Origin: Amoebophrya sp. A120
Taxonomy: Eukaryota; Protista; Dinoflagellata
Reading direction: 5' to 3'
Assembly (NCBI GenBank): GCA_905178155.1
Contig: CAJINV010000003.1
Span: 5,091,700 to 5,155,699, forward strand
Length of the DNA stretch: 64,000 bases
Shown: positions 2,884-62,100 of the stretch, one piece after another
Numbering within the stretch: the first letter of the stretch is position 1
Layout: the number at the start of each line of letters is the position of its first letter
Translations under genes and position numbers: made by a program
Notes under the pieces: generated by a model
Told to the model about the DNA's origin: nothing
The model's input: only the letters and a program-made list of their open reading frames with translations
Databases searched by the model: none

Positions 2884-5689
2884 ATGCCAGGAGTCGTGCC
2901 TGTGGCAAAAATGAGAATGCGGGCTCTCGTTCTTGCGTTTGTGTCCGTGGCGCTTCGCTTGCGCTGTTGCCTTGGATTTTCGTTGGACGAAAACGACATG
3001 CAGTTGCGCGAGGGTGAAGATGTGAACGCGGCCGTGGAGCGCGTGATGCAAAAAATGATGGTGGACCACCAGAAAACGAAACACAAAAAGCTTCACGAAA
3101 GGCGCCAAAAGATGCAGGAGGAGGATCGGTTTAAGCCGATCGCGAGGGCCGCGCCGCCAAAAGACGTGGTGGAAACGACACATCAAGGCGAACAAGACGA
3201 TGACGAGCTGGACGACGACGTGCAGCTGGACGAAGCGGGCACGAAAAATGCTGATGCCGCCGCGAGGGAGGACGAAGATGCCTCATTGTATACCCGGGCG
3301 ACAGCGTACGAGGAGAGTGGTGAGTACTTTCGCAACTACGAGCTCGCGGAGACGCACAAGATTATGGTAACGGATAAGTACCGGACGGACCAGTACCTGA
3401 AAGCGCTGCAGCGCGCCGGCGTGAAAGGCAAAATTGTGGTGGATTTCGGCTGCGGCAGCGGGGTGCTGAGTATCCTGGCAGCCCGACTCGGAGCGGACCA
3501 CACCTACTGCGTCGAGCGCTCCAGGGTTCGCGTGCAAGCAAAGCAGGTGATCGCGAAAAACGGGTACTTCCCATGGTTACTACACGCAGGCTTATTTTGT
3601 ACGAGCGACTAGCTTGCTTGTCGTGACAGTCCTGACGTTTTTCTACTCGCGAAAACTTCTACTGTGCCAAGCGCAGTAGAGGTATTCAGTGTGTGAATGC
3701 ATGTCTGTTCTGTATTAGTTCCTATCATGATCACGATCTATTGCCCAGATTCGCGGACCGCATCACGGTGGTGGCCAGCGTAAACGAGATCGAGCCGAAG
3801 TCTGCGGACGTGCTGGTGTCGGAGTGGATGGGGCATGGTCTACTGACGGATGTGGTGATCGGGGATTTTTTCGATGCCCGCGACCGGGTGCTCAAGGAGG
3901 ACACCGGGGTTCTGATCCCGTCCAAGGGCCGCATCTACGCGCAGCCGGTGAGCGATCCGGCCTGGTGGCGCGATAACGTGGCGTGGGGCACCGACAACGA
4001 CTACGGGATCGACTTTTCACCGCTCTCCCTCTACACGCGGTCGAACACCACCACCACGCCCATCCGGTTTGCCCATTTCGGCGTCTTCCAAAACCAGAAG
4101 TTCTACGGCGGGAAAAAGGCAGCGGTACAACTAGAGTGTTACAGAATGTTACCCCATCTGGTGCGCAGAATTCGAATTTTTGATATGTGTATTGTGACTT
4201 GTTTTGTAGTTCACCTTCATTGGTGCAAAAATCGGGAGCATGTCGTGGTTCAGCCGATGAACTTGTGCCAAGTTGTCCAAGCCTTTTCTGGGCTGCTTCC
4301 GCGCGTTGGATCCAAGCGATTCCGCGCAGCATTTTTCTATTGTGGTATGTACCATAAGTAGTACACGTCTCGTGGGAAAGATGCAGCAAATGCATCCGAG
4401 TTGTACTTCGACGCCACCCTTCTGTGCGCTGTTTGCAATGCTGGGTCTCAAACGGAAACAGATCTGCACGATCGACTTTGAAGCAGACAGCTACGACGCA
4501 GATTGGGAATGTGGTCGGCGTATCAAATGCAAAAATGTCTGGGTCTGGAAGAATGCAAGATTTGTCATGCGCATTTCTCATGACCCACGATGCCTGTAAT
4601 GCATGACCTAGCATCGCAGACTTTTAGAGGGCTTTCCGATGCACCTTCCGCATGAGAAATGCCCTGCCCGTGTAGCACAAACTGTGCCCCTCTTGCTGGT
4701 CATGCAATACAAATTTTTTTAGAGTCCAAAAACAGTTGGCCACTGGATTGTCCTTCATAGGCCGCCGAGAGATTCACTCGCCTCGCTCGATTTTTTTTGC
4801 TTCATCCTTCTCTTTTTGCTTTCCTTTTCCAAAAAACTATGCATGTAGGGATCGCACTTGACAAGATGGGCATCCGTCGCGGCGGGATCTCCCCGGGTTT
4901 GGTTTAGGTTTCAGGGTTTAGGGTTCCCCATTAGGGGGCCCCATTTTAGAGTCCAAAAACAGCATGACAAGTTGCAATCTTTCAGACCCAGACATTTTTA
5001 CATTTGATACGGCGCACCCGGCGGGAGCACAAGTTCCCGGAGCCGGTACCGGACGATTGGCACGGTTTTTTGATCACGTGGGATGTCACGCTCTACTCGG
5101 ACGTGACATTGGACACCTCCAACCCGACGCATTACACGCACTGGGGGCACTTGTTCTGGCCGCGACCACTGGACACGGACATTGGCAATGGGAAACTTGA
5201 GGACAAGCTTGAGCTGTCGGCATCGTTCAAATATGAAAACGGAACAGAACTCATGGTTTTGATACAACGCTTTTTTTCATTTCCGCGATCTACTTTATTC
5301 CACAGAAAGGACGCCTGTGCTCACCCGCCCCGGGTACTTACACGTACACCTGACACGACAACAAATTCTTTGCATAAAAGAGAGAAGTAGATTTTAAAAA
5401 AAATTCCACTGATGCTAGATGCAATCAAAATCATCGGGACCTATCTTGTCACCTCTATGACCAGCGGGCGAACCTCTATCACCACGACCTGCAATTCCGG
5501 TACTACTACCAGAACCACGGGGAGGAGGTGGTGCTGCGGGAGCCAGAATTTTCCGCGGACACGGTAGCGACCGAGGACGCTTTCCAGAACAAACGGCTCT
5601 ACACGGCCATGCTAGCTGCGAAGGCAAAAAAGCGAACAGAAGCCAAGCAAGACGCCATAGAAGGGAAAAAGAACAGAGTTGACCTGTAG
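2884..5689 (+). CDS. Type I protein arginine methyltransferase-like protein with N-terminal hydrophobic (signal-like) peptide
   Basis: Motifs YFRNY, HKIMVTDKYRT, VVDFGCGSGVLS (motif I), YCVE, DVLVSEWMG, RDRVLKE..GVLIPS and THW. Inferred exons 2884-3563, 3749-4124, 4462-4520, 5015-5255, 5465-5689 (GT-AG introns plus one TIR element). Ends ...KKNRVDL*. The start could be 2911. Confidence 0.8.
4521..5009. mobile_element. TIR intronic element (introner), family A, with nested insertion
   Basis: TIR tatcaaatgcaaaaatgtctgggtctggaa / ttcagacccagacatttttacatttgata. TSD cggcg at 4516-4520 and 5010-5014. Removal gives WECGRRTRREHKF in frame. Confidence 0.93.
4736..4943. other. 208-bp nested insertion with 19-bp direct repeat and telomere-like repeats
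   Basis: ttttagagtccaaaaacag occurs at 4717-4735 and 4944-4962. gggtttggtttaggtttcagggtttagggtt lies at 4895-4925. Removing the insert plus one repeat copy leaves 262 bp, the length of the sister element at 11415. Confidence 0.85.
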
Positions 5690-5766
5690 ACGACCGTTCA
5701 TGCGATCATGTCGCAATACATGAGCATCCTTTACTGAAGATGCCGATGTCGGCCTTCGCAGTACGT

Positions 5767-5987: not shown

Positions 5988-8428
5988 CTCAGGCTCCACC
6001 CAGCAAGCGCTCCTGCCACCTCGTTTCCGTTCTTGAATGCCGCGGGCGTGGTGCCCCCGACGGCCTTCAACCCGGCCAGTACTGCTTTCGGCGCTGCTCC
6101 GGCAGGGATGTACGGAGGTGGCGCTCCAGCGGCCCCAGGTGCTCCCAGAAGTAACATGTCTTCTGGGCAGCTGCAGCCGAAACAAGCGGCATTGATTGGC
6201 TCAACAGCATCTGGCTTCTACTTCCCACCAAGAACCATCTTCCGCAGCTACGGATCATCTGCATCAACACCAGCAATTCATGGCGAGCCAGCTGCAAGGT
6301 ACCACGGGTACAACAATGAATGGAAGCAATGACAGCAGCATGAGCGGCAATCCTTTCCAGGGATCTGTGGCGCTGACCAACAACGCGACTACTGCTGGCA
6401 CGATGCACAAAACCATTTCTGGTTCCATCGGCACGATGGGCTTGACCAAATCTGGTTTGGCAAACTACAACGCGAACCACTATCACCAGCACAACTCCCA
6501 CAACATGTTGCACGGTCAGCACGCGAACGGCTATGGAGCGACGAGCACATCCACTGGTGTGGAGGAGCAGCAACAAAGTACTAATTGTTTGGGCGGGCCG
6601 AACCCGAACAACCGCACTGCCACCGCGAGCGCAATGTTGACCGGAGGACCGTCTGCGGCCCCTCAGAGTGTTTCAGCAATGGCGATCGGAATGCTGAACA
6701 ATGCGGGACAGCATCAGCATCTCAGCTCGCAAATGCACATGCCGTCGTCGACGAATGAGAATACTTACGCCAGCCAGGATAAGATCATGATGCACCAGCA
6801 GCAAGATGGCAGCAAGTTACCCAACGGGAACGGTTCTCCGACGCAGCGCATAGAGCAGCATCTGGTCGCCCAGGATCGTGGTGCCAGCGCGCAGCAAATA
6901 ATGCAGGAAAAGTGGTACGAGGTGAAGCGGCGCAACTACCAGAACGACCCGGGTCCGGGTGTACCAGCCGAGCCGCACATGTTCATCGATCCGACCAAGC
7001 CTCGGAAGCAGTACTTTTTCTGTTTTATAGGATGCTCTCGACTGCCCTCCTCACGTCTGATAGATCGGAGTGTACTGAAGCGTTGCGACCCTGACGGGAG
7101 GTGACATTTTTTGTCATGGACAATAATAAATCATTTCTTTGCGACAAATGAAACAAATCGTATCAGGTTCGAGGATTATTATTACGACACGAAGCAGGAT
7201 TTCATTGACTACCCCAAAACCTTCGACTACATCATCAAGCACTACTCGAAGCGGATTAACTCCTACGGGATCGACGAGAAGCTGCTGAACGACGTGATTG
7301 TGCAGTTGATGAAGCCCCTGGAAACCGACCGCCCGTTCGAGGCCTTCAACCTGGTATGGCATTTTCTGAAGTGGTTGCGCCAGATGCAGGTGGAGATCAA
7401 AACCAAACTGTTCACCCTCATCATTCGCAGCTTCGAGAAGTGCCATGAACCGGCCAAGTACCATTGGGCAATGCTGGACATCTACAAGCGCTTGCCGGCG
7501 CGGAACTCGTATTACCTAGCTTGCTGGATGATTCTCGGCAGTTGTACTTGGGATGAAAAAACGATGACTACATTGTATGGATTTTTTTATTGTGACGAAT
7601 CGACGCTTTTGTCTTGCGTAAACAATGTACCCAAAACTATCCAGCCACGCTACCGCCGCGATGATCAAGGCGCATGGTGTAGCGCAGGATGTGGGACAGT
7701 GCGTGGAATACCTGAAACAGTACAAGATGTTGCCGAAGCACGATTCTAACAAGCGCTTCAACTTTGTCGTGTACCAGGCCGCTTTGGACGCTTCTATTCT
7801 GCACCTGCGGAACGTACTTTATTGTCATTGCGATGTATTTGCGATGATTCTTTTTCTTTCTCCTGTGCTGTAGCGGATTAGAAACACCTCATGAGGGAGA
7901 AAAGCTCCCAGATTGATGAGTCTGACAAGAGCGGGGTAACAAAATAAAAAAAGAGGTCCTCGGGGGACCTCTTGTCCCCCCGGCCGGGCGGACAAGAGGT
8001 CCCCTCGTTTTGCTGCCGGAGCGTCCGGCACGCGGAGTTCCCCCCCCCCCGTGTCGCCGCGTCGGATATTTCGGGCGAATCGGGGCGGGGACCTCTTGCC
8101 CCCCCCGTTGCGCAGAGAAATTGGCTATGTATTTGCTATACAGGACAAGAGGTCCCCACCGTTCGACCCGAAATGGCCGGCGCGGCGACACGGGGGGGGA
8201 ACTCTGCGAGCCGGCCGCTCTGGCAACAGAAGGGGGGGACCTCTTGTCCGTCCGGCCGGGGGGACAAGAGGTCCCCCGAGGACCTCTTTTTTTATTTTGT
8301 TACCCCGCTCCAAGACACAACAAATGTACTCCTTGAAAACAGAAACACCGTCGCTTGGAGGCCATGGCGCGGCGATTCATCTACGAGGAGTATGTGTCAC
8401 AGTGCGACTATGAAAACGAACGCTGGTG
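5988..8428 (+). CDS. PPR-like helical-repeat protein with Q/N/H-rich N-terminal region; 5' end unresolved, possibly truncated or frameshifted
   Basis: Inferred exons ~6196-7010, 7167-7508, 7645-7813 and 8343-~8425 (GT-AG). PPR-like segments KLFTLIIRSFEKC, NSHATAAMIKAHGVAQDVGQCVEYL and VVYQAALDAS. Apparent frame change near 6195 and no clear start codon. Confidence 0.5.
7929..8310. mobile_element. MITE with ~130-bp imperfect TIRs and 3-bp TSD, inside an intron
   Basis: Ends gagcggggtaacaaaataaaaaaagaggtcctc... and ...gaggacctcttttttattttgttaccccgctc. caa flanks both sides (7926-7928, 8311-8313). The motif ggacctcttgtcc/ggacaagaggtcc is reiterated internally. Confidence 0.88.
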
Positions 8429-9029
8429 ATCATTCTTGGTCTATCGCGATAATACTCTGGTTCACCATGCATGCTTTTTGTTATGCGAATGCGAAGCATC
8501 TGATGTGAGTCAGTGGCAGTGAATTACAGGCATGACAAAAAGAAGCGGGATGTGTGTTGTTGCGCTAAATCAAAACCGTATTCTACCCCTGGATACCCCC
8601 GAGCCGATGAGCCGGCGAAAGATCGACCCGACGCGCAACCCCCGGCAGACGCACCCGCACTTGTACTTACTACAATTACCATTCTTCGGACTAGCGACCA
8701 CCAACTTGTAAAAGTAGTATACTTTGTGAGAAAGAAGTTGCAAGATAGTTTTCATGCTGCTCATACAAACTGTCAATGTTTCAGAGCTCTCTTCGCTGCA
8801 GCCATGAATATCTGTGCGCGATTCGGCTTCTATGCTTCTGAGAGTCTTTTAGCATCATGTTGATAGTGCATTTGTTTTTGTGAGCAATAGATAATGTTCG
8901 AAGAATCTGGTGCAAGAGCAGTTGCGTATTGGGGTGAGGTTTCAGGGTTCTACATGCAATATTTGACTTTTTTTGTCCTGAGAAAGTGGCTCAGGATAGT
9001 ATTACTACCATGATCCCAGGAGCACGCCC

Positions 9030-9809: not shown

Positions 9810-10379
9810 TCACGCATGCGATGTCGGCGCCACGGAGGTGGGAGGGTAAAAGTCACATTGATAATTTCAGATTTTCCGCTCATTTAGGTAGTGCGCTCTT
9901 GCATAGTAAGTACGAAACGTGAAACTGCATATTTTCAGTTGGAATGCACTACTGATTTCTGAGATTTGTTTCGACGAACTTACTAACCACAGGTACTGAC
10001 TGGAACTTTTTTTTCAGCGGTTTCGTGCGAGCCCCGAAGCGCCTGATAAAGGAAACCGCAGAGCAGCGACCTTGAGGAACTACGAGCTTTTCTTTTTTCA
10101 GTCGCCACCCGGAGGATGAGTACACATACCTGAAGCAAAGACCACACACAGTCGCAATGTAGAAGTTTAAGAAAGCGAAGTAGTACGCCGAGTTTGTAGT
10201 ACGAAATGATGAAATACAGATTGCAATGGACAAAAATGAACATAAAAGAAAGCAGCGTCTTACTGAGTAGTCTGGGGGTATTAATTGCGACAGCTGGAAG
10301 TTTCTTTGCCAAGCTCGTCGCATCTCGCTTGGCAGCAAAAGCTCAGTTTGGCGGTGTCTCGATCCGGGCAAGATTCCGG

Positions 10380-11367: not shown

Positions 11368-14300
11368 ATGTCGCAGACCGGAAAAAGGCAGCTGATTCAG
11401 GTGCACCAGTCGACTATCAAATGCAAAAATATCTTGGTCTGGAAGGATACAAGATTTGTCATGCATGTTTCTCATGACCCATGATGCTTGTGATGCATGA
11501 CCTAGCATCGCAGACATTTAGAGGGCTTCCTGATGCACCTTCCGCATGAGAAATTCCCTGTCCGGGTAGCACAAACTGCACCCCTCTTGCTGGTCATGCA
11601 ATACAAATTTTTTTACCGTCCAAGAACAGCATGACAAGTTGCATTCTTCCAGACCCAGACATTTTTACATTTGATATCGACGGTGAACCGGATCGCAAAG
11701 GACGGGCTGCGGCCCCGGGAGTGGATTTTCAACACCCGCACGCGGCTGTATCCTGAGCAAAAACGTCCACACCCCATAGTCAAGTTGGAAAATCAGCTAG
11801 ACAAATCCGCCAGCTTTGGTTGTTTCGCATGACAGGTTTGTCCTCGTAGTGTAATGCTGTTTAGCTAGTTCAGCAGCATCACAGACCTAACATATCGCGC
11901 TTATTAAAGCATCACAAATGCCAAAGCACAGCGAGAAAATGCTTGGCATGGGGCTCCGCACGAAAAACTTTTTTGGCATGCAGGTTTGCATGACAACTCG
12001 GGGCTGGGGGCGTTTTTACACAGGATAGGCTGCGCACCGGCATCTTCCAGGAGTACGTGCTGGACTACAAAATCCTCGACGTCTGCCTGGTTTTCAAGCA
12101 GACCCTGGAGCCCGGGCGGGTGGCGGAGGCGGTGGCGATTCTGTGCGCGTGGTACCCGATGCTGGCCGGGCGCGTCGAGTTCAGCCACGACGTGGCGGTG
12201 GCCGGCGCGAAGAAGTGGGTCACCCACAACGACAAGGGCTGCAGTCTGGTGTTGGCCACCATGGAGGGCATGGGCTACGCGGACCTGCACGACCACGACC
12301 GCACGATCGACCACCTTAACTTCTGCGACATCGAGACGGACATGCCCAACAAGATCCTTTCGGGCGTGGCCCCCGTGATGACGGTGCAGCTGACGAAGTT
12401 GCAGCGCGGCGGCTGCGTGCTCGGGATCGCCCTGTCCCACTGCGTGTGCGACCACGGCGGCCTGCAGCAGCTGCTCCAGGACTGGAGCAAGCTGTACCAG
12501 GACCCGCTCGCATTGATCATGCCCACGGCGAACGTCCCCGACTGCTACTTCAACGCGCCCTCCGGCGGCGAGATCCAGGCGCACATGCGCACCCTGGGGC
12601 TGATGCGGCTATCAAAAGGAAAAATCCCCCCTCCCCATATCGAAACGAAGTTTCTGATGCTGGATTTCCATACACAAATCAGATTTGTCTTGCAGTAGAG
12701 GACTGCAGGCATATGCCAAGCCTCATTCGAGAGGTTTTGACGTAGGCGCCTAGCATGACAAACGCGTATGCTCTTAGCCCAACAGCATCACAAACCGCCT
12801 GCAAAATGCGGAACGCTTTCTGGACTTGCCTTCTTGCAAGACAGACAGGATTTGAGGTCACAAATGCGCATCACAAATTTTCAGACGGGCACGCTTTCGA
12901 TATGGGGAGGGGGGTTTTTCCTTACGATAGCGACTGGAGCGCAACCTAAGCAACCAGCTGATCAAGGACGCCAAGGTGGGGCTCAGCCTGATCGGCCAGC
13001 GCCTGGCCTCCCACTGCCGCGAGCGCCCGGACCACGTCCGGCTGTCCTTCACGAAGTTTCAAAAAGACCTGTTGATCAACACGGCCGCGAACGACGAGGA
13101 GATCGACCACAGTGTCACCACCAACGAGGCCGTGCTGGTGTACATCTGGAACCTGATGCTGGACACCATCGAGTTTCCCATGGAGCAGCGGGAACACCTC
13201 GCGGTCATGATGTACGTGGACCCCAGGTCACGGGTCTCGGAAGCCGATGTGGGCAGCAGAGTATAGCGTTTGTTTGTACACTTAATTGAGACTGAGCTTG
13301 AGTTTTTGTTTTTGACCTATCACGAAATGAATTATCGTGATTGTCTGCATGCTGTTACTAGGTGAACAGCGCTAGTACGTGCATGCAGAAATCGCATTGC
13401 ACTGGCGTTGTACAGGTTTTCATCAATAATCGCGATGTCAATGGTGCCGGTAAAAAATCCAAAACCATAAATTTTAACAGACCTTCGGGAGCATCATAGC
13501 CGGGATTTCAGTTCCAGTCAACATGAGAGGGTCGCTCGGCACGGTAACGAGCAGCGTTCATTTTAGCAGTCGAAAGGCGCTGAGGACAGAGAAAATCGCC
13601 GCCAGTGTCAAGATGGAGGCTACTATCTTCCCCGAAAACGAGTCGGGTGAGGTCCTGTTCAACCCCCAGACCACAACAGAAAACAGCGGCTGCATCGGAG
13701 AGTGGTAAGAGCACAGCGGGGATCTCTGTTTTTTTTTGCTCGAAGAGTTAGTTTATTACATTGCCTAGTTATTGCGTTGTGCGCACCTCCACGGGTAGTA
13801 CAGGTAGAAGCGAGGGTAATATTAAGGTATCAAATTATGTACTCGTACCCAAGAATATTTGTTCCGCGGTAATATCTAAACAGGTTCTACGGCGCACCAC
13901 TGCTGGATTGGCAGCGAGGGACCAAGATGGCCACGTTTGGCGCGGACTTGGTGCGGTGCGAAGTGGGGTACTCCGGTGAGGTATCAAATGCAAAAATGTC
14001 TGGGTCTGGAAACTTGTAATGCTGCGTTGGGAACAGTGAATGCTCTGTAATGCACCACCAAGCATGAGAAATATCTGCGCTTCTTTGTGTTGCGTTTTTC
14101 GCATTACAAACTGCGTTTTTGCATGACAGGCAAAAGGGTCTCTTCTTAGACACGGATCGCAAACTTTTTGGTCATGCCAGACAAGCATGACAAATATCGC
14201 AATCTTCCAGGCCCAGACATTTTTGCAGTTCATATGAGGGTGTAAAGGTGTCTCCCCGGGTGGACGGCGGGTTGGACGTGTACTTGACACGCATGGACCG

Positions 14301-15291: not shown

Positions 15292-18200
15292 ATGGCGGCT
15301 GCCCGTGGTCTCTCGGAGCAGAACATTCGTATCTGTTGCCGCATCCGGCCGGTAACCATCGGGGAGCAGGAAGCGCAGTCGTCGACCGCGGTACAGCAGG
15401 AGGATGCGCGGAATCTGGTGCTGTACGATCCCCGGCACAAGGGCGTGTCCCGGCGCTTCCAGTTCGATCGCGTGTACTGTGAGGAGCACACGGAAACCAT
15501 CTTTCAGGAGGAGATCGCCCCGCACGTGCGGGGCCTGTTCGCCGGGAACCACCTCACCGTGTTCGCGCACGGGGCCTCCGGGTCCGGCAAAACCTTTACC
15601 ATGGAGGGGGTGGAACCGGATTGCCAGTACGGCGGCCTGGGAATCACTCCACAATCCGTGGCCATGATTTTCCACCACCTGGATTCCGGCGACGTCGCCC
15701 CGCAGGACTACGAAGTCCGATTCTCGCTGTATTCTTCGAGATTTGTAGGCCATAGGTTTATTTTACCTATCAACATCTGGCACTGGCACGAGTACGACTC
15801 TGGCTTTGCCTGACATTCTGGCAGCTTTGCCCGACAGTTAATATAGAAGGTGAATTATAAGACAGCCACAGCGGCTCTACTCCGACGAGTGCCGTCCTCT
15901 GCTCGGAATGATGCAGAGTGCAGCACCAGTATATCTCTAAATTATTACGTCGCTCCCCCGACCACCGCTAGTTGTACTTGATGACACCACAGGTATGAGA
16001 TTTACTGCGAGAAGGTGCGGGATCTGCTGCAGGACGTGGATCCGCAGAGCAAGGGGCGAGATAGCAAATACGACGTGACGGACCTGCCCATCCAGAAGGA
16101 CCTCGCGGGCTTCGAGATCATTCCGGACCTGACGGAAGTTATTGTGGAAAGCACAGAACAGTTCTGGCATCTGTACCAAAAACGCATTCGCCTGCGCAAG
16201 AAGGGCCGCACCCTGCTGAACGAGGAGTCCTCGCGGTCGCACGCGTTTTGCGTGCTGAAGGTGGTCAAAAAGCAGAAGGAGAACAAGGCCAATGCCCTGG
16301 CGCGCCGGCCGAGCGGCGCCTCCAGCATGACCTTCCACGAGCGCCCGCGCCCGCCGCAGACCGGGAGACTGTTCCTGGTGGACCTCGCGGGGTGCGAAGA
16401 CAACCGCATGTCGGGTAACAGCGGCATCCGCATGCTGGAGTCACAGGCGATCAACGATACCTATCTCGCCCTTGTCAAAGTCTTCCACGCGTTGAAACGC
16501 CGGCAGGGGCTCTCCGCCTTCTGCCGCGACGCGAAGTTGACCCGACTGCTGCGCGGTGCGCTGGAGTCGAAGGCGAGCCCCTGTCTAGTCATGATCACGG
16601 TATAGTACGAGCATGATGCGAGAATTGATGAAGTAGGATAATAAATTGCTGTGAGCTGGGTTCTTTCTTCAGCAGATCCACCTGTGGTCCTTTTATGTAA
16701 CGCATGATCTTCGGAATGGATTTTGATCCCCATCATGTCCCTTCCATCCTTCTCCTGAAAAACTCAAATTGTAGGTTTCGCCGTCCCGTTTTCGGTTTCA
16801 GGCAACACAGAACACATTTTCCTACCTGCAGTTGAACGGTGCGCCGCTCGGCGGAGCTGCGTCTTGCGCAGAGATTCCGGCGCTTCCCCTCGCCAATCTA
16901 AACGCGCCGCCGGCGCCGGCGAACCAGGTGCAGAAGAGCCACAGCTTTGTGCGCGAAGCTTTGTCAGCCCGAGGTCCGGAGAAGAAAAAAGACAGCTTTC
17001 AATTGAACCTGCCGCAGAACAACAGTAATCTCGTCCTCCAGAGACCGCCGTCGTACTCGGCGCGGAAGTTACCTCCGCCCTCCTCGGCACGGCCGGGCGG
17101 GCGCGGTACCCATCAGCGTGGTAGCGTGGACAGTTTGAAGGACGCGGCCGGAAGGGCGGCGTATTCGCTGGCTGGAGATCAGAACCGGATGAAGATGAAG
17201 CCCTTGTCCGCGCAGCCGTCGCGCCGGCACAGTTTCACAGTCGAGTCGGAGCCCAAGATTCTGCGTGGTGGAGGTGCCGCTCCGCGTTCGGCGGATGTCA
17301 GCATGTTATCGGAGACCAACGTGCGCCCGGGCGAAGTTGGTCCGGCGGACGACGCGGAAGACCTGGACGAGGACTGGAAGAATGCACGCAGAGTGGAGGT
17401 CGATGAATACGAGTCTTTCAACCTTGACAGCAAGAAACTGGATGAAGGAGCTGCAGGACAAGTGACTAAGGTGGCGCGAGAGGACTACGTTCTTGACAAG
17501 GGGAACAAGGAAACGAAACCCGGTCAACTACAGCAGCATCTTGCTCCTGTGCCTCCGTCAGCGCCAGGTCCTGCGGATGGAGCTCCTTCGCGCGGACCTT
17601 CTCCGCGCGCCAGGGCACAACTGTCGTCTTCCCCGCTGGTAAGTGTCGACTCCCCGCCTGGTCTTGTCGAGAGCAGCAGTCTGCAGATTGGTGAGAAAAG
17701 TGCAAGTAGCTCTTTTGGAGCAGAGCAGCCGAAGATGTTGAAAACAGCAGCGACAGCGGCAGCAGCAACAGCTCCAGGTAGAAGTCGTGAAAAACTTGTT
17801 TCTTCACCCGCAAAAGGCGACAGGACCGCGAAGAAACAATCCGGTTGTGCTCAACTTGAACAACCGGTCACGGCGCTGCCACAGGCGGTGGCAACAGGGA
17901 AGTCACAGCCGTCAAAGGTAAAAAGTAGTGCCACCTTGCAAAAACAAATGGGCCGTGGAGCGGTTGCTGCACCGTCCAATGGCGCCACAGAGGTTCTGGC
18001 GAAGAAAAGACCACTACATAGCAAGGTAAAGGCAGGTGGGACCAGCAGCCGTGATTTCAACAACGGCCCGTCTTCCCGCCCGACGTCCGCCGGCGTTGCC
18101 GCCTCCAGGCCAACGTCGGCGACTCAGCAGGCGAGCAGGCAGGCGGCGCAGGAGACGGGAAGTACGCAAGCCGCGGACAGTCGAGTGAGCACTGCCGCCG

Positions 18201-47719: not shown

Positions 47720-50700
47720 ATGAGTGCAGATGACAATCTCTGGGGCGCATGGCTGGATGTCCGCGATCGGGACATTGTGAAGGAGAATGCAGACGCGGCG
47801 TTTGGGCGGCCCCGGAGTGCGCCAAGCACGAAGACAGCGGCTACGCTGGCGCGCCCAAGCTCCGCCGCGGCATGGTTGCAGCGGAGGCAATCCGAGTTGC
47901 AGCGGCGCCGGGACGTCGCAGAATACACTGCCTCCCCGGGGGGCTCTCCGCTCCTCGGAGCGGAATACAATTACACGTCCGGTGGCAGCAGCAGCAGTAC
48001 GAATCCCAATCCGCAGCTGGCTGGTTCTTCTGCAACAACCGATGGACAACAAGTCGCAGCGCCGCGGGTGCAAAGTGCGACAGCACGTCCACCACATGGG
48101 CATTCAAGCCACCGAACCACAGGAGCTAGTACTGCCAACGGAGCAGACGAGGAAAATGTCCTGACTGCGCAACCACGCCCGAAGACGGCCATTGGGATTC
48201 CGTCTCGGTTTAAGGTGAACACACACCTGATAGACTTTTCGCGCAAGGGCTTGTCTCCCTCCTTCCGAACGGGCACCGGAGTAGGCGCAGGAGGAGCAAC
48301 AGCGAACAAAATCGGCAACGGCACCGGCCCGAGCCGCGGCGACGAAGACAACACGCCGCTGGGTGGGGCACGAGTTCTTGCGTCAAGAACCAGTGACCTT
48401 GCGGCAGCAGACGCGACCACCGCCAAACCGGCGATGTCGCCCATTGTTGAGGAATCGTCCATCCTCACTGCAGGGGAGGAAAATTTTTTGGAGAAGAAGC
48501 GCATTATGTGCGAGAAAAGTCCGAAAAAGAGTATTTTCTCGATGCTGAACATAGAGCCGGCCGCTGCGCAGCCTGAAGTCGTAGAAAAACCGAGCTCGTC
48601 GCCGGGAAATAAACAATCCATGCCGCGGACCCCAAGCCGGCTCCCCTCGTCGCCCTCGTCGTCACCTCTCGCCATTGCGCGCCAAGGCAGCACCGCGACC
48701 CTCGAGGTGGCCGCGGGTGAGAGCGGCGACGCGGACTCGGCGCAGCGGACCGCCGGGCCTCCCCGCAGCGCCAGCGCCTCGCCCTCGAAGCAAAAAAGCG
48801 GGGTCGAGTCGCCGCAGCAGATCATGGAGCGCTTGCAGAAGCGGTGGCGCGCGTACCTCGAGGGCATCGCCGCCGAAGAGGAGGCTCGGCAGCGCAAGGA
48901 GAACTGGAAGCGGCGCATGGCCGAGGTGGAGAGCAATCGGATGTCCGCACACGACCGTCAGAAGTTCTTCAACGAGATTCGGTACAAGGCGCAACAGGAC
49001 TCGCACTTCCACGGGCAGTATCAAATGTAAAAATGTCTGGGTCTGGAAGGTTGGAACTTGTGATGTGCATTTCACAACACAGAAAAATCTCTCATGCATA
49101 GGCGGCAAAAGGTGCCCATTTCCTGTCACCAAAATGGGGGATTTGTGATGCGGATTAAGCAATGCGGAAGCTTCTCGAAATCTGTGATGCTAGGGCTTCC
49201 ATGACAGGCATTCTGTGTCATGCAAAAACAGCATGACAAAAATCTGCATTCTTCCAGACCCAGACATTTTTACATTTGATAGGCAGTTCATTCTCGCGCA
49301 GGCCACGGAAATGCTGCACCAAAATATCAAATGTAAAGATGTCTGGGTCTGGAAGAATTCAGGTTTGTCATGCTTGTCCGGCATGGCTCTTAAATCTGTC
49401 ATGCACGTTACCCAAGCGCTCCGTTTTTCTGTGATGCAGCGGCGCAGTTTGTCATGCAGAATAGGCAACACCTAGGAACTCAGAAACTTGTCATGCTGAG
49501 CCAGCATTTGTAGCCTCATCATGAGACGCCACCCAGCATCACAAGTTTCCAGACCCAGACATTTTTGCATTTGATACAAAACGCGGAGCAACCACTGGAC
49601 GCCGCGCTGCGCTACCGGCTTCAAACCCTGCTCGAAAAGGCGGCTCAGGTCACCCACGGCGACAACGTGTCCGCACTGCTGCTGCTGGCTGCTCTTGAAG
49701 AAGAAGAGAAGAACTATACCAAGGCACGGCAACTGCACGCCACGATCGTCCAGAAAGCAAAGGAGGGAAACGAAATTGCGCTCACTTGCCTCGTGGAGGT
49801 TGCGGAGTTTCGGGAACGCCAAATACAACGCGACGCCGACAACCGCCGGAAACGCGCACGAAAAAAAAGCATGATGAAGGTTCTACTTCGTGTGTTGATA
49901 TATTCTGCTCCTGGAAACAAGTACAAGTAGAACAGCAAAGTACCAAATAAAAGCTTTGACCTTACTGATAGAATAGATGCTAGGACCGGATTGATTTTCC
50001 TATCCTGTCAATACTCTCGTTGCGGGTCGTACTCTTCGTTTGAAACTTACTTCTAGCCGCACTTACAGCTGCATAGCATAGAGTCAAAATCATGTTCAGG
50101 TTGTACCGAAGAAAAAATCGACAAATCGAGGGACAGCAAACGTCATCGCGGAGCTAGCGATGAAACGCGAGGAGGTTGAGCAGCCCATTCTGAAGTACAC
50201 GGTGCAGCAGGGCTTCCTCGAGCCCATGCGCAAGGCGCTGCTGCGACTGACCGCACAACACCCGTCCGACAAGCGGCATCTGGACAGCCTGAAGCGCAAG
50301 ATTGCGCAGGAAAAGGCAAAGGAAAACCGGGAGCATGCGCAATCTCTGGCCACGCTGAAGAAAATTTCGGGCGGTTTCTTCATGCAGGGCGCGGCAAAGA
50401 CCGACAACAGCGAAGTTTCACACATGGAGAAAATGCGGCTCAAGCTGCTACAGTCCACAAAGCTCGCGGTGGATGTGAATACCATGATGCAAAGCACCAG
50501 TTCCGTATCTAGGAAAAAACAACCATCCCCATCCATTTTATGCATGACAAACAGAGGACTGCGTGCATGCTTTGCATGACAAATTGGATGGGGATGGTTG
50601 TTTTTTTGTGGATATTCCGACGAGGAGAAGCGGCGAAGAGGCGCGCGAAAAAAGCCACTGGTAAGCGAGGACACCGTGGTGCAGTGGATTCCGCGCGAAT

Positions 50701-52917
50701 ACTATCAGAATGAGAAGGTGGCGTATCGAAGACAGATCGACCGCGGCTACGATGAGAAGTACAGTTTTTTACTGCAAATTTCTCACACGCATCGTTGCTA
50801 CAACGCCGGTTCGGTTGTGCTTGCAGCTCCGCCTCCCTCATGGGGTTTTGTAAGGTTTCTATAAGTAAAATTTTCTTGAACTTGATTTCATCTTCGCACG
50901 GCATTGATTTGTTCTCTCCACCGCGACAGGTTCGACCAGGAGGTAACACTGAATCATGCTGGCGTCATCACTTTTCACACGCGAATGGCCCGGGCAAACT
51001 TTGGACAGCAACGTATTACAGTGAAAAGTGCCCCCCACCCCCAAAGTTGCAAAAATTTGTGCTGCGAAGTTTCCAAATGAAAACTTTTTGTCATGCATGA
51101 AAGGAGGACGAATCTTTCTGATGCAGAGTCTAGTCGTGTTTCGCATCGCTTGCATGACAAGCACCGCTCTTCCTGGGATCTTTTGCAATACAAATTTTTG
51201 CTATTCACGATCGGAAATCTGTGATGCTGATACATGCAAGAGGGCGAATGTTTCATTTGGAAAGGTTTGCAATACAAATGCTTTCAAGTTCGGGGGTGGG
51301 GGCATTTTTCATTGTAATACAACGACGCCCACAAAAGAAAAAATCGCGAGGCCAGTCGCTGCTGAAGAAGGCGTCCACGCTATCCTATGTAAAAACGTAC
51401 CCACCCCATAGTTGTCATGCAATTCTGCATGCCAAAAAAGTAAAAGTTTCTCATGCGGAGCCCTATGAGAAGCATTTTCTATTCGTGTTTTGGAATTTGT
51501 GATGCTAGAATCAGTATGGTAGGCTAGCTCTGTAATGCTTCTGAGCTAGCGAAACAGGATTACACTACGAGGACAAACTTGTCATGCCAAACGACCAAAG
51601 CTGTGTGATTTGTCAAGCAGACTTGACTCTGGTGTGGGTACGTTTTTACTCAGGATACACGCAAATGCTCGCAACGGGGTACCTACACTTCGTATTTTTT
51701 TAGCTGCAGTGTTGTTTTCTCATTCTTTCGCACCATTTTTTCGCGGACCTGCTTTAATTTTTTAGTTGAGTCAGTCCATTTTCGTTTCACTCACATTCCG
51801 TGCCGACGCACACTGCGTACATGGAACAAATCGAAACAGTGCTTTGGTAGAAGATACTGCGGCAAACGTGCGCGACGGGCTAGATTCTCCGAAGGAGCCA
51901 CCGGAGGCCGGAAGGTTGCACGTGGAGCGTCCGCAGTCGACACTGATGAAACGACGACCGGACAGCGCGCCCTACCTGCGCACCTTGCACACATGGGACT
52001 CGAGTAAAGGTTTCGACGTTTTCTCGATGATGCACGGCAAATCCGAAGACTACAATCACGCCGTCCGAAGCGCCGCGACGCTCGTCAGTCGGCGGCACAA
52101 GCGCGCCGCCAAGCAATCCGCGAGTGTTTCGCCCGACGGCCGCAACAGTGAAACGTCGTCCCCCACCTTATCTCGCTCGCCCTCGGTGTCCCCCAAGCGT
52201 AGTGAAAAAGAAGAGCCAGGAGCTGCAGCACCAAAGGTCGTGGGATCGAGTTCCACTTCGAAGGAAAGCAACGCCATGACGCCGACTGTCCGCCGGGTTT
52301 ATTCTGTAAAGGAGAACTCATTCCGCTCGCTCTCTGCAAGTCCGTCAAAGCAACAAAAGGACAAGAAAGGTACAGACAATGTGATTGGTCGGGTGCGTGC
52401 TGTTTTGAGCTTCTGCTTCTTCCATTTTCTGAGAAAAATGAATGCATAGTTTTTATCGTCCGAAAGCTTGTTGCGCACTTATTACCTCGCATCGTGCTCA
52501 GAACTTCTTCTAAATGAGGAGCACGCGGCGACGGCTTATGTTGTCATCACCCGCGTGCCAGATGCGCAAGAGGATAGACATTTAGAAAAATATCGATCCT
52601 TGTAAATTTGCAACTACTCCACAGGCGAGCACCACCACGCCACGGGCCGCAGTTTGCTTGAGAGTAGCTTGAAGCTTGCGAAGCTACCGCCGAAGTTGGA
52701 TCCGGACGAAATAGATACCTACCCCGACCTGGATGTTGCGAAGCTGTTCCCCATAGAAACGAAGGTCCAAAACCACGATCCACGACGAGTTCGCCGTTCC
52801 TACGGCCTCGTTCCCACGGAAACGCCAGACCCTCCTGAGGACGACTTTGCGTTGCGAGCGCGACCACCAGAGCGGGCATCACCAGAGCACTGCTTCCGCA
52901 CTGCTGCCCAAAGCTGA
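47720..52917 (+). CDS. Large hypothetical protein interrupted by five TIR introners and four canonical introns
   Basis: Inferred exons 47720-49018, 49287-49324, 49582-49879, 50100-50505, 50620-50758, 50930-51013, 51325-51380, 51663-51678, 51840-52387 and ~52625-52917 join without stops. No domain recognised. Confidence 0.65.
49019..49281. mobile_element. TIR introner, family A (263 bp)
   Basis: TIR tatcaaatgtaaaaatgtctgggtctggaag / cttccagacccagacatttttacatttgata. TSD ggcag. Removal gives HGQFILAQ. Confidence 0.93.
49325..49576. mobile_element. TIR introner, family A, second subfamily (252 bp), opposite orientation to the 13982 copy
   Basis: TSD caaaa. Removal gives LHQNAEQPL. Interior aligns with the reverse complement of 13982-14234. 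Confidence 0.92.
50506..50614. mobile_element. Minimal TIR introner, family D (109 bp)
   Basis: TIR tatctaggaaaaaacaaccatccccatcca / tggatggggatggttgtttttttgtggata. TSD ttccg. Removal gives STSSDEEKR. Confidence 0.9.
51014..51319. mobile_element. TIR introner, family E (306 bp)
   Basis: TIR tattacagtgaaaagtgccccccacccc / ggggtgggggcatttttcattgtaata. TSD caacg. Removal gives FGQQRRPQKK. Confidence 0.9.
51381..51657. mobile_element. TIR introner, family B (277 bp), opposite orientation to the 11749 copy
   Basis: TIR tatcctatgtaaaaacgtaccca / tgggtacgtttttactcaggata. TSD cacgc. Interior aligns with the reverse complement of 11749-12027. Confidence 0.92.
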
Positions 52918-54084: not shown

Positions 54085-56969
54085 ATGGGGTGTGGCGTCA
54101 GCTCCAGCCAAAAGCCGGGCGACCTGCAGGTGCAGCAGTTGCGACGCCGACTAACGGTCGCACAGCTCGATAAGGTAGACGGACAGGAAAATGGCAATGA
54201 GGATGGCGCAGACGTCGAACGCGGTCTCTTGCAAAAGATATCGGATAAGAGTACTACAATTTATCTCAATCCATTATTTGCTAGCAAACAAAGACCACGA
54301 ACAAGATGGTGGTAGTTTATTCACCGAGCTGCACTATGAATGCGCGAATGCACGTATGCTCGGCAGCGTGCATTGATAATTACCTAGCGCGTGTTTTATT
54401 TCATTCGGGCAGCATCCATTGTAATCAATCCAACTCCGAGGTATCTTGGAAATCGCCGATGAATTGAGCAAAGTGCTAGACAATGCGGACAGCACAGAGT
54501 CACCGACAAAAAGTGCAAGCGGAAAGACACCGAAGAGGAGAGTCAGCATAGGTACTAAATCAATGATGAACGGACGATCTTTTTTGAAGCATCAGAGCGA
54601 AGACAAACTGGTTTTGCTGGGGAATGCAGCCGGTAGAGGTCCGCGCGCAGATGCCATATTACGGATTTTTCGAAAGGATGAACTATAGGGAGATGAAAAG
54701 CAACTACTGTGGTCACGACAGGCTCTGAGACAGACAAGAACGCCAACAAGCGACAGAGCTTCAAGAAGAAGGACGAGTACAGGATAGGAGACGACCTCGG
54801 CGAAGAAGAGATTCGTATCGGATACTCGTGCAGGAAAGGTTTGAAACCCGAGTCACCCAATCAGGATAGCTGGTTTGTCTTGCTGGTATAACTTCATATA
54901 GTCGATTTTTTGTTTTAGGATCGTCCCCTGCCGCGCCGGGGGTGTACATATTGGCTGTCGTTCCTGCCGCACCAACATCTACGGATGAAAAAAGAGCGTG
55001 AGGGACGGTCTGCGTGCTTCCTTATCGCGGTAGACAAAGAATTTGGTAGTTGCTGTGGATTTTGTAAAAAAGAATTCTGAAAAACATAAATCCCCAGCAA
55101 GAAAACGAACTTGGGATATACGGCGTTTTCGACGGCCATGGCGCTAAGGGGCACGATGTGAGCAATCTGGTGAAGTTGTACCTTCCCAAGCTCATCCTGA
55201 CCAGCGAAAAGTTTTCGGAAGCACCGGAGAGTGTGATGGTAAGTTGCTTCCATCGCATGCAGAACCTCATCCAGGCCCACGACCGCAAGGGCCTCCTGAA
55301 CGCCCAGCTCTCAGGGTGCACGTGCACCATCGTCGTTCACGACATGCGCGAGGACCGCCTCGTCGTTGCGCATGTGGGCGACTCGAGGGCAGTATTGGTC
55401 CGGAAAGAAGACGGGGGCGACAGGTCTTCAGTTCTTATCATTTGTTTTGCATGTCGTGCACGGTGCGGTTGTAACGATCTACTTTTGGCTTGTCACCTGC
55501 GGGTTCTTGGTTCATCTAATTACTCTGTGCGCTGGATCTGATGCACCATCGGTATCGGATATCATTGACTTTGATGATTTATGACAGGGTAATCGCTGAG
55601 GACTTGACCCGTGACCACAAACCCGACCTGAAGGAAGAACGAGCCTACATTGAGCGCAATGGTATGATGAAAGAAGTTTTTACTGCTTTCATCTTGAGTC
55701 GGTCGGGTGCCTCGTGCGTATGTACTTAGTAGAATACTTCTTCGCAAGTCAAACGATGAAGAATGCATCCTCCGCGGCGCTCAGATACTTTATACATAGA
55801 ATTTCACTGCATTATCGATCTGCAGGTGGTAGGGTAGCGTTTGACGGGTTCGCAAACCATCGTGTGTATGTGAAGAACGGAACCTACCCGGGTCTCAACA
55901 TGTCCCGCGCCCTCGGGGATCTCCTCGGGAGCACCAACGCGGGAATTAACAACACTCCCGAGGTGCGGGTGATCGACCTGCCCAGGAAGACGGGGGGTGC
56001 CCCCAATGGTTCAGCACTTTCTGCCGACGGCACCAGGGCCATTCTCCTGATCTGCTCCGACGGCGTTTGGGAATTCGTCTCCTCAAATCAAGCAAAAGAC
56101 TTCGTATTTTACTTTCTTCTGTGAAAAATCTCGCGTGGGCGTGGTCTAGTACTAATGGTTTGATGTTCGACAGGAATAGAACTACACGTACACGTCTTCA
56201 CGACGGACAACGTTTGATCACAATCTAACAGGCGATGCGGTTTGACGCAAGGCGTGCAAAGGATGCAGCCGAAACGCTGGCCAAGGAGTCTTGGGATCGC
56301 TGGATACATGAGTTATCGTGGAAGGCTTGAGGGCAGGAGAAACTGTTGTCTGGCCTTAATTGCTTTCTCTGAAATGCATGCTCTAGACTTGGACTACTTT
56401 TGCAACGAATTTTGAAATGACAAGTCTCCTTCTGCTAGGCATTGCCTACGCAGTAGGATCGGAACTCGAACTTGTTTTTTTCACAGCTTCAGAAAAGAGT
56501 GTCAGTTTCGGCAGAGCAAGTGTCAGCCAAATTTGACTTGCTCTCAAATTTTCCCAGAATACGAAGAGGGTGGCTGCGTGGTGGATGACATCTATCCTGT
56601 CGAAAAGCGACGATCCCACCCCAGACTTGTCATGCAGATTTGCATGCCCAGCAGCACGCGTCGTCTGACCCCCGATGGCAGTATAGTAATTTTCTAGCCG
56701 CTTTTCCTCGAGATTTGTCATGCTCTATTCAGCATAAGAAAGTGCGGCATGTGTGTATGATGCGGCTGAACTACCTCGGAACGACTGCCGTGCAGGTCCA
56801 AGTCAAACTTGTGTTAAAGTCACATAGTCTGTTTCTGCAGAGCCAAATACCTTGTCATGCAGCGAAGTTTCTGCATTTGTTTTGTTTAGCTGATTTTTAA
56901 ACATCTTTGCGGTGGAGTGGGTACGATTTCCGTCGCGATAACATTACCACATTGGTCATCTACATCTGA
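54085..56969 (+). CDS. PP2C/PPM-family protein phosphatase with predicted N-myristoylation/palmitoylation
   Basis: MGCGVSS start; motifs RKGLKPESPNQD, YGVFDGHG, SGCTC, AHVGDSRA, DHKP, GLNMSRALGD, ICSDGVWE and terminal VVDDITTLVIYI*. Multi-exon; the junction near 56310-56565 is unresolved. Confidence 0.85.
56593..56940. mobile_element. Diverged TIR introner (348 bp) splitting the PP2C DDIT motif
   Basis: Imperfect TIR tatcctgtcgaaaagcgacgatcccacccca / tggagtgggtacgatttccgtcgcgata. TSD acatc/acatt. Removal gives VVDDITTLV. Confidence 0.82.
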
Positions 56970-59123: not shown

Positions 59124-62100
59124 GTGTATGAAAATCACAACAACGGGGCTGGTGAAGAAGGTGCGAAGATTGATAGTAGTTCATGTCTTGAGTGCGGGAA
59201 GGGGGACAGTTTTCACAAAAACAAGGGCCACAAGGAGGAGAACTGGCGAAGCTGGATCAGAGACAAATACGAGAACACCACCCACGCTTTTCGCGATAAA
59301 TTAAACCATACGAGGGAATACGTGACCGAAAAAGTCGAGAATACCACCCACGCTATGCGCGATAAATTAAACCATACGACGGAATACCTGACCGACATGA
59401 AGGAGAATACCACCCACGCTATTCGCGATAGATATCACGGTGTGACGGAATACATAAGCGAGGAACGCGCCCTCGTTACCATGAAGGTGCGACAGATTAC
59501 GGACGGCGTGAAGGCTCTTAACGAAAAGAGCAAGGACGTCAAGAGCTGGGCGAAAAACCTACGGAATCTGGTATTCTCCTTGCGTTGATCCTTTGTGTTT
59601 TTTCATTCTCCGGTTTTTCTCCCGTCAAAGTTCTGCAGATAGCGATGTGTAGTGTGCTGGTCCGAGTTTGGTGTTCGTTAAGATTTTTCATCTGATCGCA
59701 TGAGTAGGGACACCTCAGTGCTTTCCTTGGAAAAAGTTGTACGCAATGTCAACGGTTCGAGGTAGTGCTGTGCATTTGAATCTATTTGTCACTGTAGCTG
59801 GGCGTCATCAATCCGTCGAATTTCGCCGACTTCATGCCGAAAGGCGAAATCAATCTGGGCCATGGAATGGAGACCCTGCAGGGGTCCGATCTCCTGGGGA
59901 ACATGACCGAGTGGATGGGGAAGCACGTGCTGGGCGGAAGCGACGCGCACGGTGTATGCACCCCGAACATGGCACTGTACGGCCCCGAGGCGCCCCCGGC
60001 GCCGCAGGATGCCTGTGCGGCCGGGAACTACGATCCGGAACCACTGACGCGAGACGCCGTTTTCAAGGGCTTGAGAAGGGAGGTGACAAACAGGCCTCTG
60101 TATTACGCGCAGAATCCTACGGCGTTGGCGACGGAGCTTCTGGAGACTGAGTGCGACATCCACGCGGTACTATTCATTGCCAGAAAATAAAGTTCTTGAG
60201 GAGCAGGCACAGCCGCCGACACAGCCGCCGACACGATATGTAGGACATGTAGGCACGTTGCAAAGCATCTGCATGCAAGAGCCTACATATGCTGCATGTG
60301 TCGTGAACTTAAAATTTACTGCAGTGCCTACTTCTGTATTCGCCGGACCTGAGGGAGCGCGCATTCCTCCTCCCCCCCTCCGCCAGGGCGAGAGCCTCAC
60401 AACACGGGGCAAAAAAACTTCGGGCACGCCTCGTGTGCCCGCCGACTTGTCAACCCCCCCCCAAGCAGCACGGGGACCCCGGGGCCAACACATGGGGGGC
60501 CCGCAATCACCCCGATCATGCGACTCCCTGCGCGGAATGCGAAAAAAAAACAGCGCGGGCGCCCGCCCTCTTGGTCCCGCCCGCCCCCACATGTTACGGC
60601 GCGCCGGGTTCGCAGCGCGCCCATAGTTAGATAGCACGCGAATGGCTTCGGCCTCGTTGCGTACGCCTCTGCGCCTACTGCCGACCAGCCAACTGGCTGC
60701 CCCATGCATGCGAAGGCGCCACACGAAGAAGAGCCGCCGGGCGGTCGATTGTTGTGCGGCGAGACCGCCGGGGGCCCCCTCCACCCTTGCGTCGGGGTGC
60801 CCGCTCCCGTCCTCCGGAATTGGACCAACCTACCCCCCCCCCTTTCGCCTGGGCGAAAGGGGGTCCAATTGTTGCACAGCCTCTAAAGTTCTTGGGGAGC
60901 ACGCACAGCCGCCGACTCTGAAATTACACCCCGGCTGGACTTATGATTTTCCGCGGTCAATCTCAATGCCCTTGGTTGTTTTTATCCTGAACTTTCTCGG
61001 CTGTTTGGCACTGGCGGTAAACGGGCTCCGAGCCCAATCCGTTACCCTTGCAGAGGGGGAGACTGGGATAAGAAAAGCCGGGGGCTTGTTGTATTCCGTT
61101 GGGGTTTTTGAGCTCCCATAGGGCTTTTTGTGTCTGGCCTTTGCCAATTTTACGTTGCGAGAAAGGTCACGGATAAAACGACCAAGGTCGGAGCTATTTA
61201 GCGTCTTTGGCGCCATTGCTTGCGCGCTGTTTTGGGGCTGCTACGGATTTTCGTTATATCGCCTGCCTTGCAGGCTGAGGGAAACCTCCGGTCCCACATT
61301 ACGTAGCTCGCTGTGTTTTTTTTTTGGGCTTGGACTTATATTGCTTTCCCGCCTTCCAGGGCTCCGCAGCCTTTTCGATGGGGCATGTTGTCCCCCAAAT
61401 TCATCGCTGGGTCGCTTCGCTTCCTGCGGGTTCTTAGGGGTTGCTTCGGCGCGTGGCTCCTTCGGCGGTGGCGGGGTGCCCCATCGCGGGCGCTCATGCC
61501 CTTCCGGTGAAGACGGCTTCCCACTGGAAGCGGTGCCCCATCGCGGGCGCTCATGCCCTTCCGGTGAAGACGGCTTCCCACTGGAAGCCTACGATCATCC
61601 AAAGGATGATCTATCTCTGGCTGATTCTGTATAAAATAAAGTTCTTGAGGAGCAGGCACAGCCGCCGACACGAGTGTCATCCTGATCTCCATTTCATCTT
61701 CACTTGGTTCCAAAATAGGAGTCAGTAGGCACTTCTAAAAACAATTTGTATGCCTTGACAGACTTGGATGGCGTACCTGAAAGAGTCAGCAATGAATGAA
61801 GGCAGTGATGCGATATTTTTTCTCTGTTGCAACTGTACAGAAAGGAGAAAAGGAGGATCATGACAAGACTGCGTGCGCTGCCAAAAAGGGGACAGACGGC
61901 ACAGGCTGCTGCAAGTGGCTCTCGCTGTCACATGATGCCATGACGACCACCATCGGAAAAATCATGACCAAATTGACGACAATCGGCGATGCTTTGTCGA
62001 AGGGAGAGGGTACTCATTCTGATTTTCTTGTTCTCTGTGCGTAGGACAAGGATGGGCCGCGTGAAGTTGTTGATGAACTTAGGAGATTTGAAGTTGGATG

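Follow-up and report, generated by a model that had tools for sequence, protein, structure and literature searches.

Where transcripts fix the cut, Amoebophrya introners are removed as N-TAT...ATR-NNNN and share a TAY core with ordinary GTAY introns

We analyzed a 64,000-nucleotide stretch of the genome of Amoebophrya sp. A120 (contig CAJINV010000003.1, positions 5,091,700 to 5,155,699; hereafter the window), in which genes are interrupted both by ordinary GT-AG introns and by introners, transposon-like exonic inserts that are spliced out without GT-AG ends. Where transcripts fix the cut, introners are removed as N-TAT...AT(A/G)-NNNN, that is, one base before the terminal TAT and four bases past the far end of the element, and neither a G at +1 nor a terminal AG is required for their removal. 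Since the RNA joints place the introner cut one base before TAT, positions +2 to +4 read TAY in both classes of intron. An earlier note on this DNA had proposed that the introner terminus mimics the host donor; the cut one base before TAT and the shared TAY at +2 to +4 agree with that proposal, and its GTAT does not stand, as the base at +1 is free.

The window holds 13 exonic inserts with terminal inverted repeats (TIRs) of the form TAT...ATA and 5-bp target-site duplications (TSDs), 11 of them perfect and 2 with one mismatch, and in 12 of the 13 the inverted repeat begins with TAT, seven nucleotides and AAA. Three decayed introns (5231, 8408 and 56313), found by RNA joint and not by motif, lie outside the 13 and bring the non-canonical introns of the window to 16. 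Introner copies are many genome-wide, as seen in the DNA-like run X5 and in related loci, and RNA joints show that they are spliced out of mRNA without GT-AG. The intron equals the element plus 5 nt, and its removal restores the mRNA. Transcript evidence is drawn from runs X1-X4, which are guessed to be RNA, come from one sample and are assembled as contigs; these align to 2800-16900 and 44500-62300 of the window. All counts of RNA joints are among the joints listed, one listing having given 15 of 213 joint rows.

A perfect TSD permits six cuts, and two joints are therefore uninformative on register: 4515->5010, ambiguous over 6 positions (introner G-TAT..ATA-CGGC, 4520..5013, element 4521-5009, perfect 5-bp TSD), and the RNA contig joint of the introner C-TAT..ATA-N4 at 51380..51661. 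Four others are informative. Joint 56312->56566, across the decayed introner T-TAT..ATA-CGAA (56313..56565), has no overlap letters and allows register 4 alone; it shares a contig with six GT-AG joints and restores a 416-amino-acid PP2C frame. Joint 8407->8600 allows registers 4 and 5 (C-TAT..ATA-CCCC, 8408..8599, three runs of the one sample), and joint 5229->5463 allows 3 and 4 (A-TAT..ATG-ACCA, 5231..5463, four runs). The introner C-TAT..ATA-ACAT at 56592..56944 has a TSD mismatch at position 5, where the base found in the mRNA is that of the right-hand TSD; its joint 56587->56941 is thereby limited to registers 0-4, and a cut at TAT is excluded. Register 4 is the only one common to the four. 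The six RNA-seen non-canonical introns begin with G, A, C, T, C and C, and GT...AG ends, present in all 19 RNA-seen ordinary introns, are present in none of them. In the three decayed introns the TSDs match at only 1-2 of 5 positions and TAT and ATR are kept, for which the probability by chance is ~1e-9 from intronic triplet frequencies. Published motifs point the same way: in A120 Table S4, T is second in all nine top non-canonical motifs, and the first base is G, C, A or T (PMC7789003).

Related elements extend these counts. A scan of metagenome contigs gave at least 139 loci, 80 listed ones lying on JACKZZ01 contigs, with introners up to 97.6% identical to those of the window, though the strain may differ. 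The related loci contain at least 172 distinct elements, at least 149 of them with a perfect TSD; a codon model trained on the window genes was used to orient them, and 113 were kept and 36 dropped for a weak or non-coding score. Results on related elements are given for the loci listed. C or G stands at +5 in 113 of 113 oriented elements. Under register 4, 45 of 94 introners fall between codons (p = 0.002). The last exon base before the introner is G in 46 of 113 against 37 expected, a weak excess that parallels the ordinary donors, 11 of 19 of which have G at -1.

The ordinary introns had been described in the earlier note as starting mostly with GTAY and not GTRAG, and this is borne out by transcripts: GTAY accounts for 16 of the 19 RNA-seen GT-AG donors and GTRAG for one. 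A is found at +3 in 18, C or T at +4 in 17, A or T at +5 in 16 and G at +5 in two, with acceptors that are mostly CAG. The yeast donor consensus is GUAUGU. Against a background of GTAY at 41 of 254 intronic GT (0.16), the enrichment at donors has p = 1e-10. All 14 donors cited in support had been placed and spelled correctly; eight (3564, 4125, 7011, 7814, 13261, 15729, 16600 and 51679) are GT-AG joints in RNA contigs, while two (23241 and 35585) lie outside the RNA-aligned stretches and four (44805, 45888, 59571 and 60167) lie inside and are absent among the joints listed, all six restoring an open frame. Among RNA-seen donors beyond those 14, with 62010 also left out, 7 of 10 are GTAY (p = 2e-4), and the count becomes 26 of 32 once 13 frame-inferred introns join the RNA-seen set. 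The counts omit three donors for which several choices keep the frame (near 11168, 25783 and 29665-29680). An ab initio intron finder run without donor weights placed 22 of the 32 window donors correctly; on the short related loci 9 of its 29 calls were GTAY (p = 0.03), which is noisy and a hint at most. The ordinary introns showed neither a fixed branch A nor a polypyrimidine tract, and no pairing of their ends.

The reading we favour, at about an even chance, is that both intron classes are removed by one relaxed major spliceosome recognizing the shared TAY at +2 to +4. Such a spliceosome would read U at +2, A at +3 and a pyrimidine at +4, and would have dropped its checks on G+1 and on the terminal AG together. 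Losing both while keeping U+2 would be coherent because G-1 and G+1, and A-2 and the branch A, check each other; in the P complex of yeast, the paired bases are G-1 and G+1, A-2 and the branch A, and A51 of U6 and U+2 (10.1101/212811). The 3' cut would be measured four bases from the far end of the element. In young elements the TIR stem would place this end beside the donor; in old ones, where only the ATR triplet is left, the triplet would probably be read directly, possibly as a branch adenosine at -7. A MITE (a miniature transposable element with inverted repeats) ending in TAT would then be spliced wherever it inserted, which would explain the spread through exons. The pyrimidine at +4 may stem from loss of SNRNP27K and perhaps also from a putative loss of U6 methylation. 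Nearly all spliceosome proteins and the small nuclear RNAs (snRNAs) U2, U4, U5 and U6 are reported from A120, and U1 snRNA and snRNP27 are reported as not found (PMC7789003); +4 U donors go along with the loss of SNRNP27K, in yeasts, or of METTL16 (PMC10581693). METTL16 is unmentioned in the supplement of PMC7789003, and no search aimed at it was made.

Elements with altered ends bear on how strictly each end is read. Nine candidates among the related loci have one changed terminal base, and two of these, one an AT-rich false hit and one with 5' TAC, were set aside as non-coding. Of the remaining seven, six differ at the 3' end (AGA, ATC, ATG, ACA, ATG and ATT) and a single one, of uncertain orientation, differs at the 5' end (p = 0.06); with intron 5231 added, the ratio is 7 to 1 (p = 0.035), and none of the 7 changed 3' ends has lost the A at -7. 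This suggests that the 5' TAY is stricter than the 3' ATA, with A-7 as a candidate branch point.

A number of considerations weigh against a single relaxed spliceosome. Four joints define the register, all read in contigs of a single RNA sample, and the likeness of the two classes stops at +4, since introners have C or G at +5 and ordinary introns mostly A or T. Spliceosomal removal itself is inferred from indirect evidence. A TIR stem starting at +2 would, by predicted pairing (0.87-1.0), hide TAT from U1 or U6, so that TAT would have to be read before the stem forms or the stem be unwound. TAT doubles as the transposase end, and this accounts for its conservation in young elements with no recourse to splicing. 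The proposed cause of the +4 pyrimidine predicts U, yet C is found there in 9 of the 19 ordinary donors, and ordinary introns have no fixed branch A at -7 (7 of 19). The A25 repeats begin with TTA plus purines, and the pyrimidine at +4 may thus not be general. Lastly, the asymmetry between 3' and 5' changes is borderline and comes from sequence alone, with predicted orientations.

A more detailed version of the relaxed-spliceosome reading is held only tentatively. Here a spliceosome lacking the G+1 and AG checks would read U+2, A+3 and Y+4, take its branch A from the transposon ATA at -7 and cut at a fixed distance, and the GTAY donors of the host would have selected which transposon ends were able to invade. 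If true, any TAT-ended MITE would be a ready-made intron at any target site.

The main rival, which we consider rather unlikely, is a separate, Euglena-like machinery that would remove the introners by reading a protein-held, paired TAT:ATA, with cuts falling 1 nt ahead of it and 4 nt beyond it, the likeness to GTAY being coincidental. The architecture would be that of the Euglena code 5'-N3CDG-/-CH'GN5-6 (PMC12501133), and such a machinery would fit introns in which G+1 and AG are both dispensable and in which bases +1 and -1 show no covariation (chi-square p = 0.15, n = 113). Positions +2 to +4 can pair with -5 to -7 in all 16 non-canonical introns of the window, and at least three contiguous possible pairs starting from +2:-5 are found in 16 of 16 of these versus 1 of 19 RNA-seen ordinary introns. 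However, a pair is broken by four of the six changes to 3' termini in coding context, and changes are commoner on the 3' side. The triplet helix is also not predicted in spliced older introns: for the terminal triplet the predicted pairing probability is ~0 in four older introns with RNA joints, as against 0.87-1.0 in three young elements. This rival would, moreover, have to ascribe to chance that three bases match the host donor at the right offset.

That the long TIR stem alone sets both cuts, with no end sequence read, is improbable. Strong end duplexes are present in 12 of the 13 window introners (z -4.5 to -14.6), but the spliced introns 5231 and 8408 have no end pairing above shuffles (z +0.8 and +0.5) and are cut in the same register, so that a long TIR stem is not required; pairing is weak in intron 56592 (z -1.0), and TAT is kept in all three decayed introns. 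The earlier note's proposal that the 3' site is set by TIR pairing is weakened by the same unpaired introns and by the triplet predicted to be unpaired in the four older ones.

We regard as very unlikely the model of the earlier note, in which insertion or survival favours TSDs that end in G and thereby rebuild a GTAT donor. Its count was right: 8 of the 13 window TSDs end in G, a weak excess (uncorrected p = 0.024 against an exon G frequency of 0.314), since there is a 19% chance that one base or another reaches 8 of 13 at one of the five TSD positions; with the decayed introns included, 8 of 16 start with G. The excess does not carry over to the related elements. G stands at TSD position 5 in 35 of 113 oriented elements (31%), against 36.8 expected from codon position and 32% G in the flanks, and in 26 of 94 and 19 of 69 at stricter orientation cut-offs, against 32-34% flanking G. 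An orientation-free count of G at position 5 or C at position 1 gives 77 of 149 (52%), against 51% by chance and 72% under that model (p = 6e-8). The window and the related contigs differ in G at position 5 at p = 0.06, and the contigs may be of another strain. Within the window, 5 of the 6 RNA-seen non-canonical introns begin with A, C or T, the decayed ones with A, C and T, and A120 Table S4 has CT-AG at 2.6-3% and GT-TG at 1.3% (PMC7789003). AG at the last two intron bases is likewise unenriched among the related elements, where 8 of 113 have it and 11.8 are expected. The related contigs thus refute G co-option from the TSD, by an outcome that the earlier note had itself named as refuting; with G at +1 free, AG unenriched and TAT and ATR kept in the decayed introns, the shared signal is TAY at +2 to +4 and not GTAT. 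Half of the original idea therefore holds, namely the GTAY donor and the cut before TAT, and the other half, G co-option, fails. Least likely of all is that the non-canonical joints are artefacts, produced by reverse transcriptase jumping from one direct repeat to the other or by alleles of DNA excision: that X1-X4 are RNA is a guess, and they are contigs of one sample, but joint 56312->56566 has no repeat overlap, shares its contig with GT-AG joints and restores the PP2C frame, and none of the listed spliced joints occurs in the DNA-like run X5.

The remaining introners, like all introns given here, lie on the forward strand. Those at 11414..11680 (C-TAT..ATA-N4), 11748..12031 (G-TAT..ATA-N4), 12609..12933 (C-TAT..ATA-N4, TSD with one mismatch) and 13981..14238 (G-TAT..ATA-N4) are placed by TIR and frame, and all but 12609 also by TSD; no RNA joint was seen for these four, where there is little coverage. 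A joint row at 14024->14100 (depth 2.8), inside an introner, was dropped as a repeat artefact. TIR, TSD and frame also place G-TAT..ATA-N4 introners at 34007..34273 and, in a metallophosphatase gene, at 38159..38469. Between 49013 and 52623 the model exons total 1570 nt, which equals the gap in the RNA contig; this length agreement, with TIR and TSD, places introners at 49018..49285 (G-TAT..ATA-N4), 49324..49580 (A-TAT..ATA-N4), 50505..50618 (a short G-TAT..ATA-N4 element) and 51013..51323 (G-TAT..ATA-N4), and it backs three frame-inferred ordinary introns. Two raw-read runs, X8 and X9, cover an introner end only and contain no junctions; the raw RNA reads of X8 match the introner end at 49019-49065 only, with a different flank, and show the same family transcribed in another sample. 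The 489-nt introner at 4521-5009 contains a few telomere-like TTTAGGG units at 4900-4925, and part of its 3' half seems to be repeated within it. The decayed introns 5231 and 8408 both start with TATGAAAACG; blastn gave no other similarity, and they possibly represent an old family.

Ordinary introns with an RNA joint and a CAG acceptor include 3564..3748 (GTACTT), 4125..4461 (GTACAA), 7011..7166 (GTACTT), 7509..7644 (GTATTA), 7814..8342 (GTACTT), 8663..9019 (GTACTT), 9846..9992 (GTAAAA, 3' of the stop codon), 13261..13480 (GTATAG), 13705..13883 (GTAAGA, the sole GTRAG) and 15729..15992 (GTATTC, in a kinesin gene by Pfam). The same holds for 51679..51839 (GTACCT, an RNA contig joint), 54552..54721 (GTACTA), 54886..55097 (GTATAA), 55424..55587 (GTCTTC), 55662..55825 (GTATGA), 56104..56231 (GTATTT) and 62010..62221 (GTACTC); 16600..16774 (GTATAG) ends in TAG, and 54251..54440 (GTACTA, in the PP2C gene) ends in GAG. 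Frame alone places the CAG-ended introns 23241..23385 (GTATAG), 24475..24601 (GTACAT), 29908..30038 (GTACGC), 38833..38953 (GTAGAA), 39317..39521 (GTAAAT) and 60167..61840 (GTACTA, containing repeats), and the TAG-ended introns 35585..37963 (GTACTT, spanning an assembly gap), 44805..45108 (GTATAC) and 59571..59797 (GTATTC). Intron 45888..46087 (GTATCT..CAG) is placed by frame and by an RNA contig piece that begins at 46088, and the three backed by the RNA contig gap length as well as by frame are 49880..50099 (GTTCTA..CAG), 50759..50929 (GTACAG..CAG) and 52370..52624 (GTACAG..CAG). A different MITE, with a TIR beginning GAGCGGGG and a 3-bp CAA duplication, occupies 7929-8310 inside the ordinary intron at 7814 and not an exon. 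The ordinary intron at 60167 is filled by a multi-copy repeat (60181-61670) whose two ends carry near-identical blocks of 40 nt and which has variant copies in X5; a tandem-repeat row at 61474->61532, present in X5 too, was dropped as a repeat artefact. Tandem repeats of 17 bp and shorter lie at 36993-37760, beside a 975-N gap, within intron 35585-37963.

Thirteen genes were modelled in the window, all on the forward strand, including by Pfam a methyltransferase, a transferase, a kinesin, a metallophosphatase and a PP2C. An 1800-amino-acid frame at 41125-47027 has many 23-amino-acid repeats, IQ-motif-like by eye, and a weak glucokinase-like domain. Two stretches at the start of the window, parted by one N at position 256, recur further in: 1-255 matches 7796-8050 exactly, and 257-351 likewise matches 10380-10474. 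This resembles a join made in assembly or a second copy of a gene; variant bases are seen in RNA contigs at 7356-7470 and 8373-8374. An Rfam search of the window gave no match, including no snRNA, and a search of viral contigs gave no match.

In A120, 65% of introns are without GT-AG and U1 snRNA is apparently absent, and how such introns are removed is posed as an open question (PMC7789003). A fixed rule N-TAT..ATR-N4, with a shared TAY core and a free first base, lets gene finders place introner borders, and it would show how far the two end checks of the spliceosome can relax; G co-option from the TSD is removed as a wrong lead.

Among known systems, the +4U donor class linked to METTL16 or SNRNP27K loss resembles the ordinary introns of the window in A at +3 and a pyrimidine at +4, and snRNP27 is undetected in A120 (PMC10581693, PMC7789003); it differs in that C and U are equally frequent at +4 here and that few donors (2 of 19) have G at +5, unlike GUAUGU. 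Introners that take their 5' splice site from the TSD, such as those of Symbiodinium microadriaticum, are likewise cut inside the TSD with mRNA length restored, whereas they recruit a splice dinucleotide and neither G nor AG is enriched here (PMC9860276). In Fritillaria borealis, too, introns with TIR and TSD stem from transposons and are processed by a modified major spliceosome, and reduced U6 N6-methyladenosine is linked there to changed 5' sites; those introns have defined ends (AG-AC, AG-AT), with U1 present and U2AF duplicated, whereas the introners of the window have no set first base or last four bases (PMC13326754, PMC11282704). The nonconventional introns of Euglena share a complementary triplet at fixed offsets, free terminal bases, a MITE-like origin and coexistence with GT-AG introns. 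They differ in offsets (3 and 5-6 nt versus 1 and 4 here) and in motif (CDG/CHG versus TAT/ATR), and the purine at the exon start, like that motif and those offsets, is not a feature of the window introns; the Euglena motif is also unlike the host donor, and its authors favour non-spliceosomal machinery (PMC12501133).

The closest comparison is with the introners already published for A120, which have an inverted repeat of TAT, 7 nt and AAA, direct repeats of 3-5 nt, a length of ~250 nt, exonic insertion and co-oriented genes (PMC7789003, Farhat et al. 2021). Judged by sequence, the window elements belong to them, with the same inverted-repeat motif in 12 of 13, short direct repeats, a similar length, exonic positions and co-oriented genes. 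The Fig. 3 legend of that paper gives the splice sites as variable relative to the hairpin, with the border unknown, and its text speaks of a repeat of 4 nt upstream of the 5' end (PMC7789003). The searched open literature and the sections of PMC7789003 consulted contain no statement of a fixed register or a shared TAY core, part of which its figure logos may show. Where the published account leaves the border variable, RNA joints here fix it at N-TAT..ATR-N4, and the ordinary GTAY introns share positions +2 to +4.

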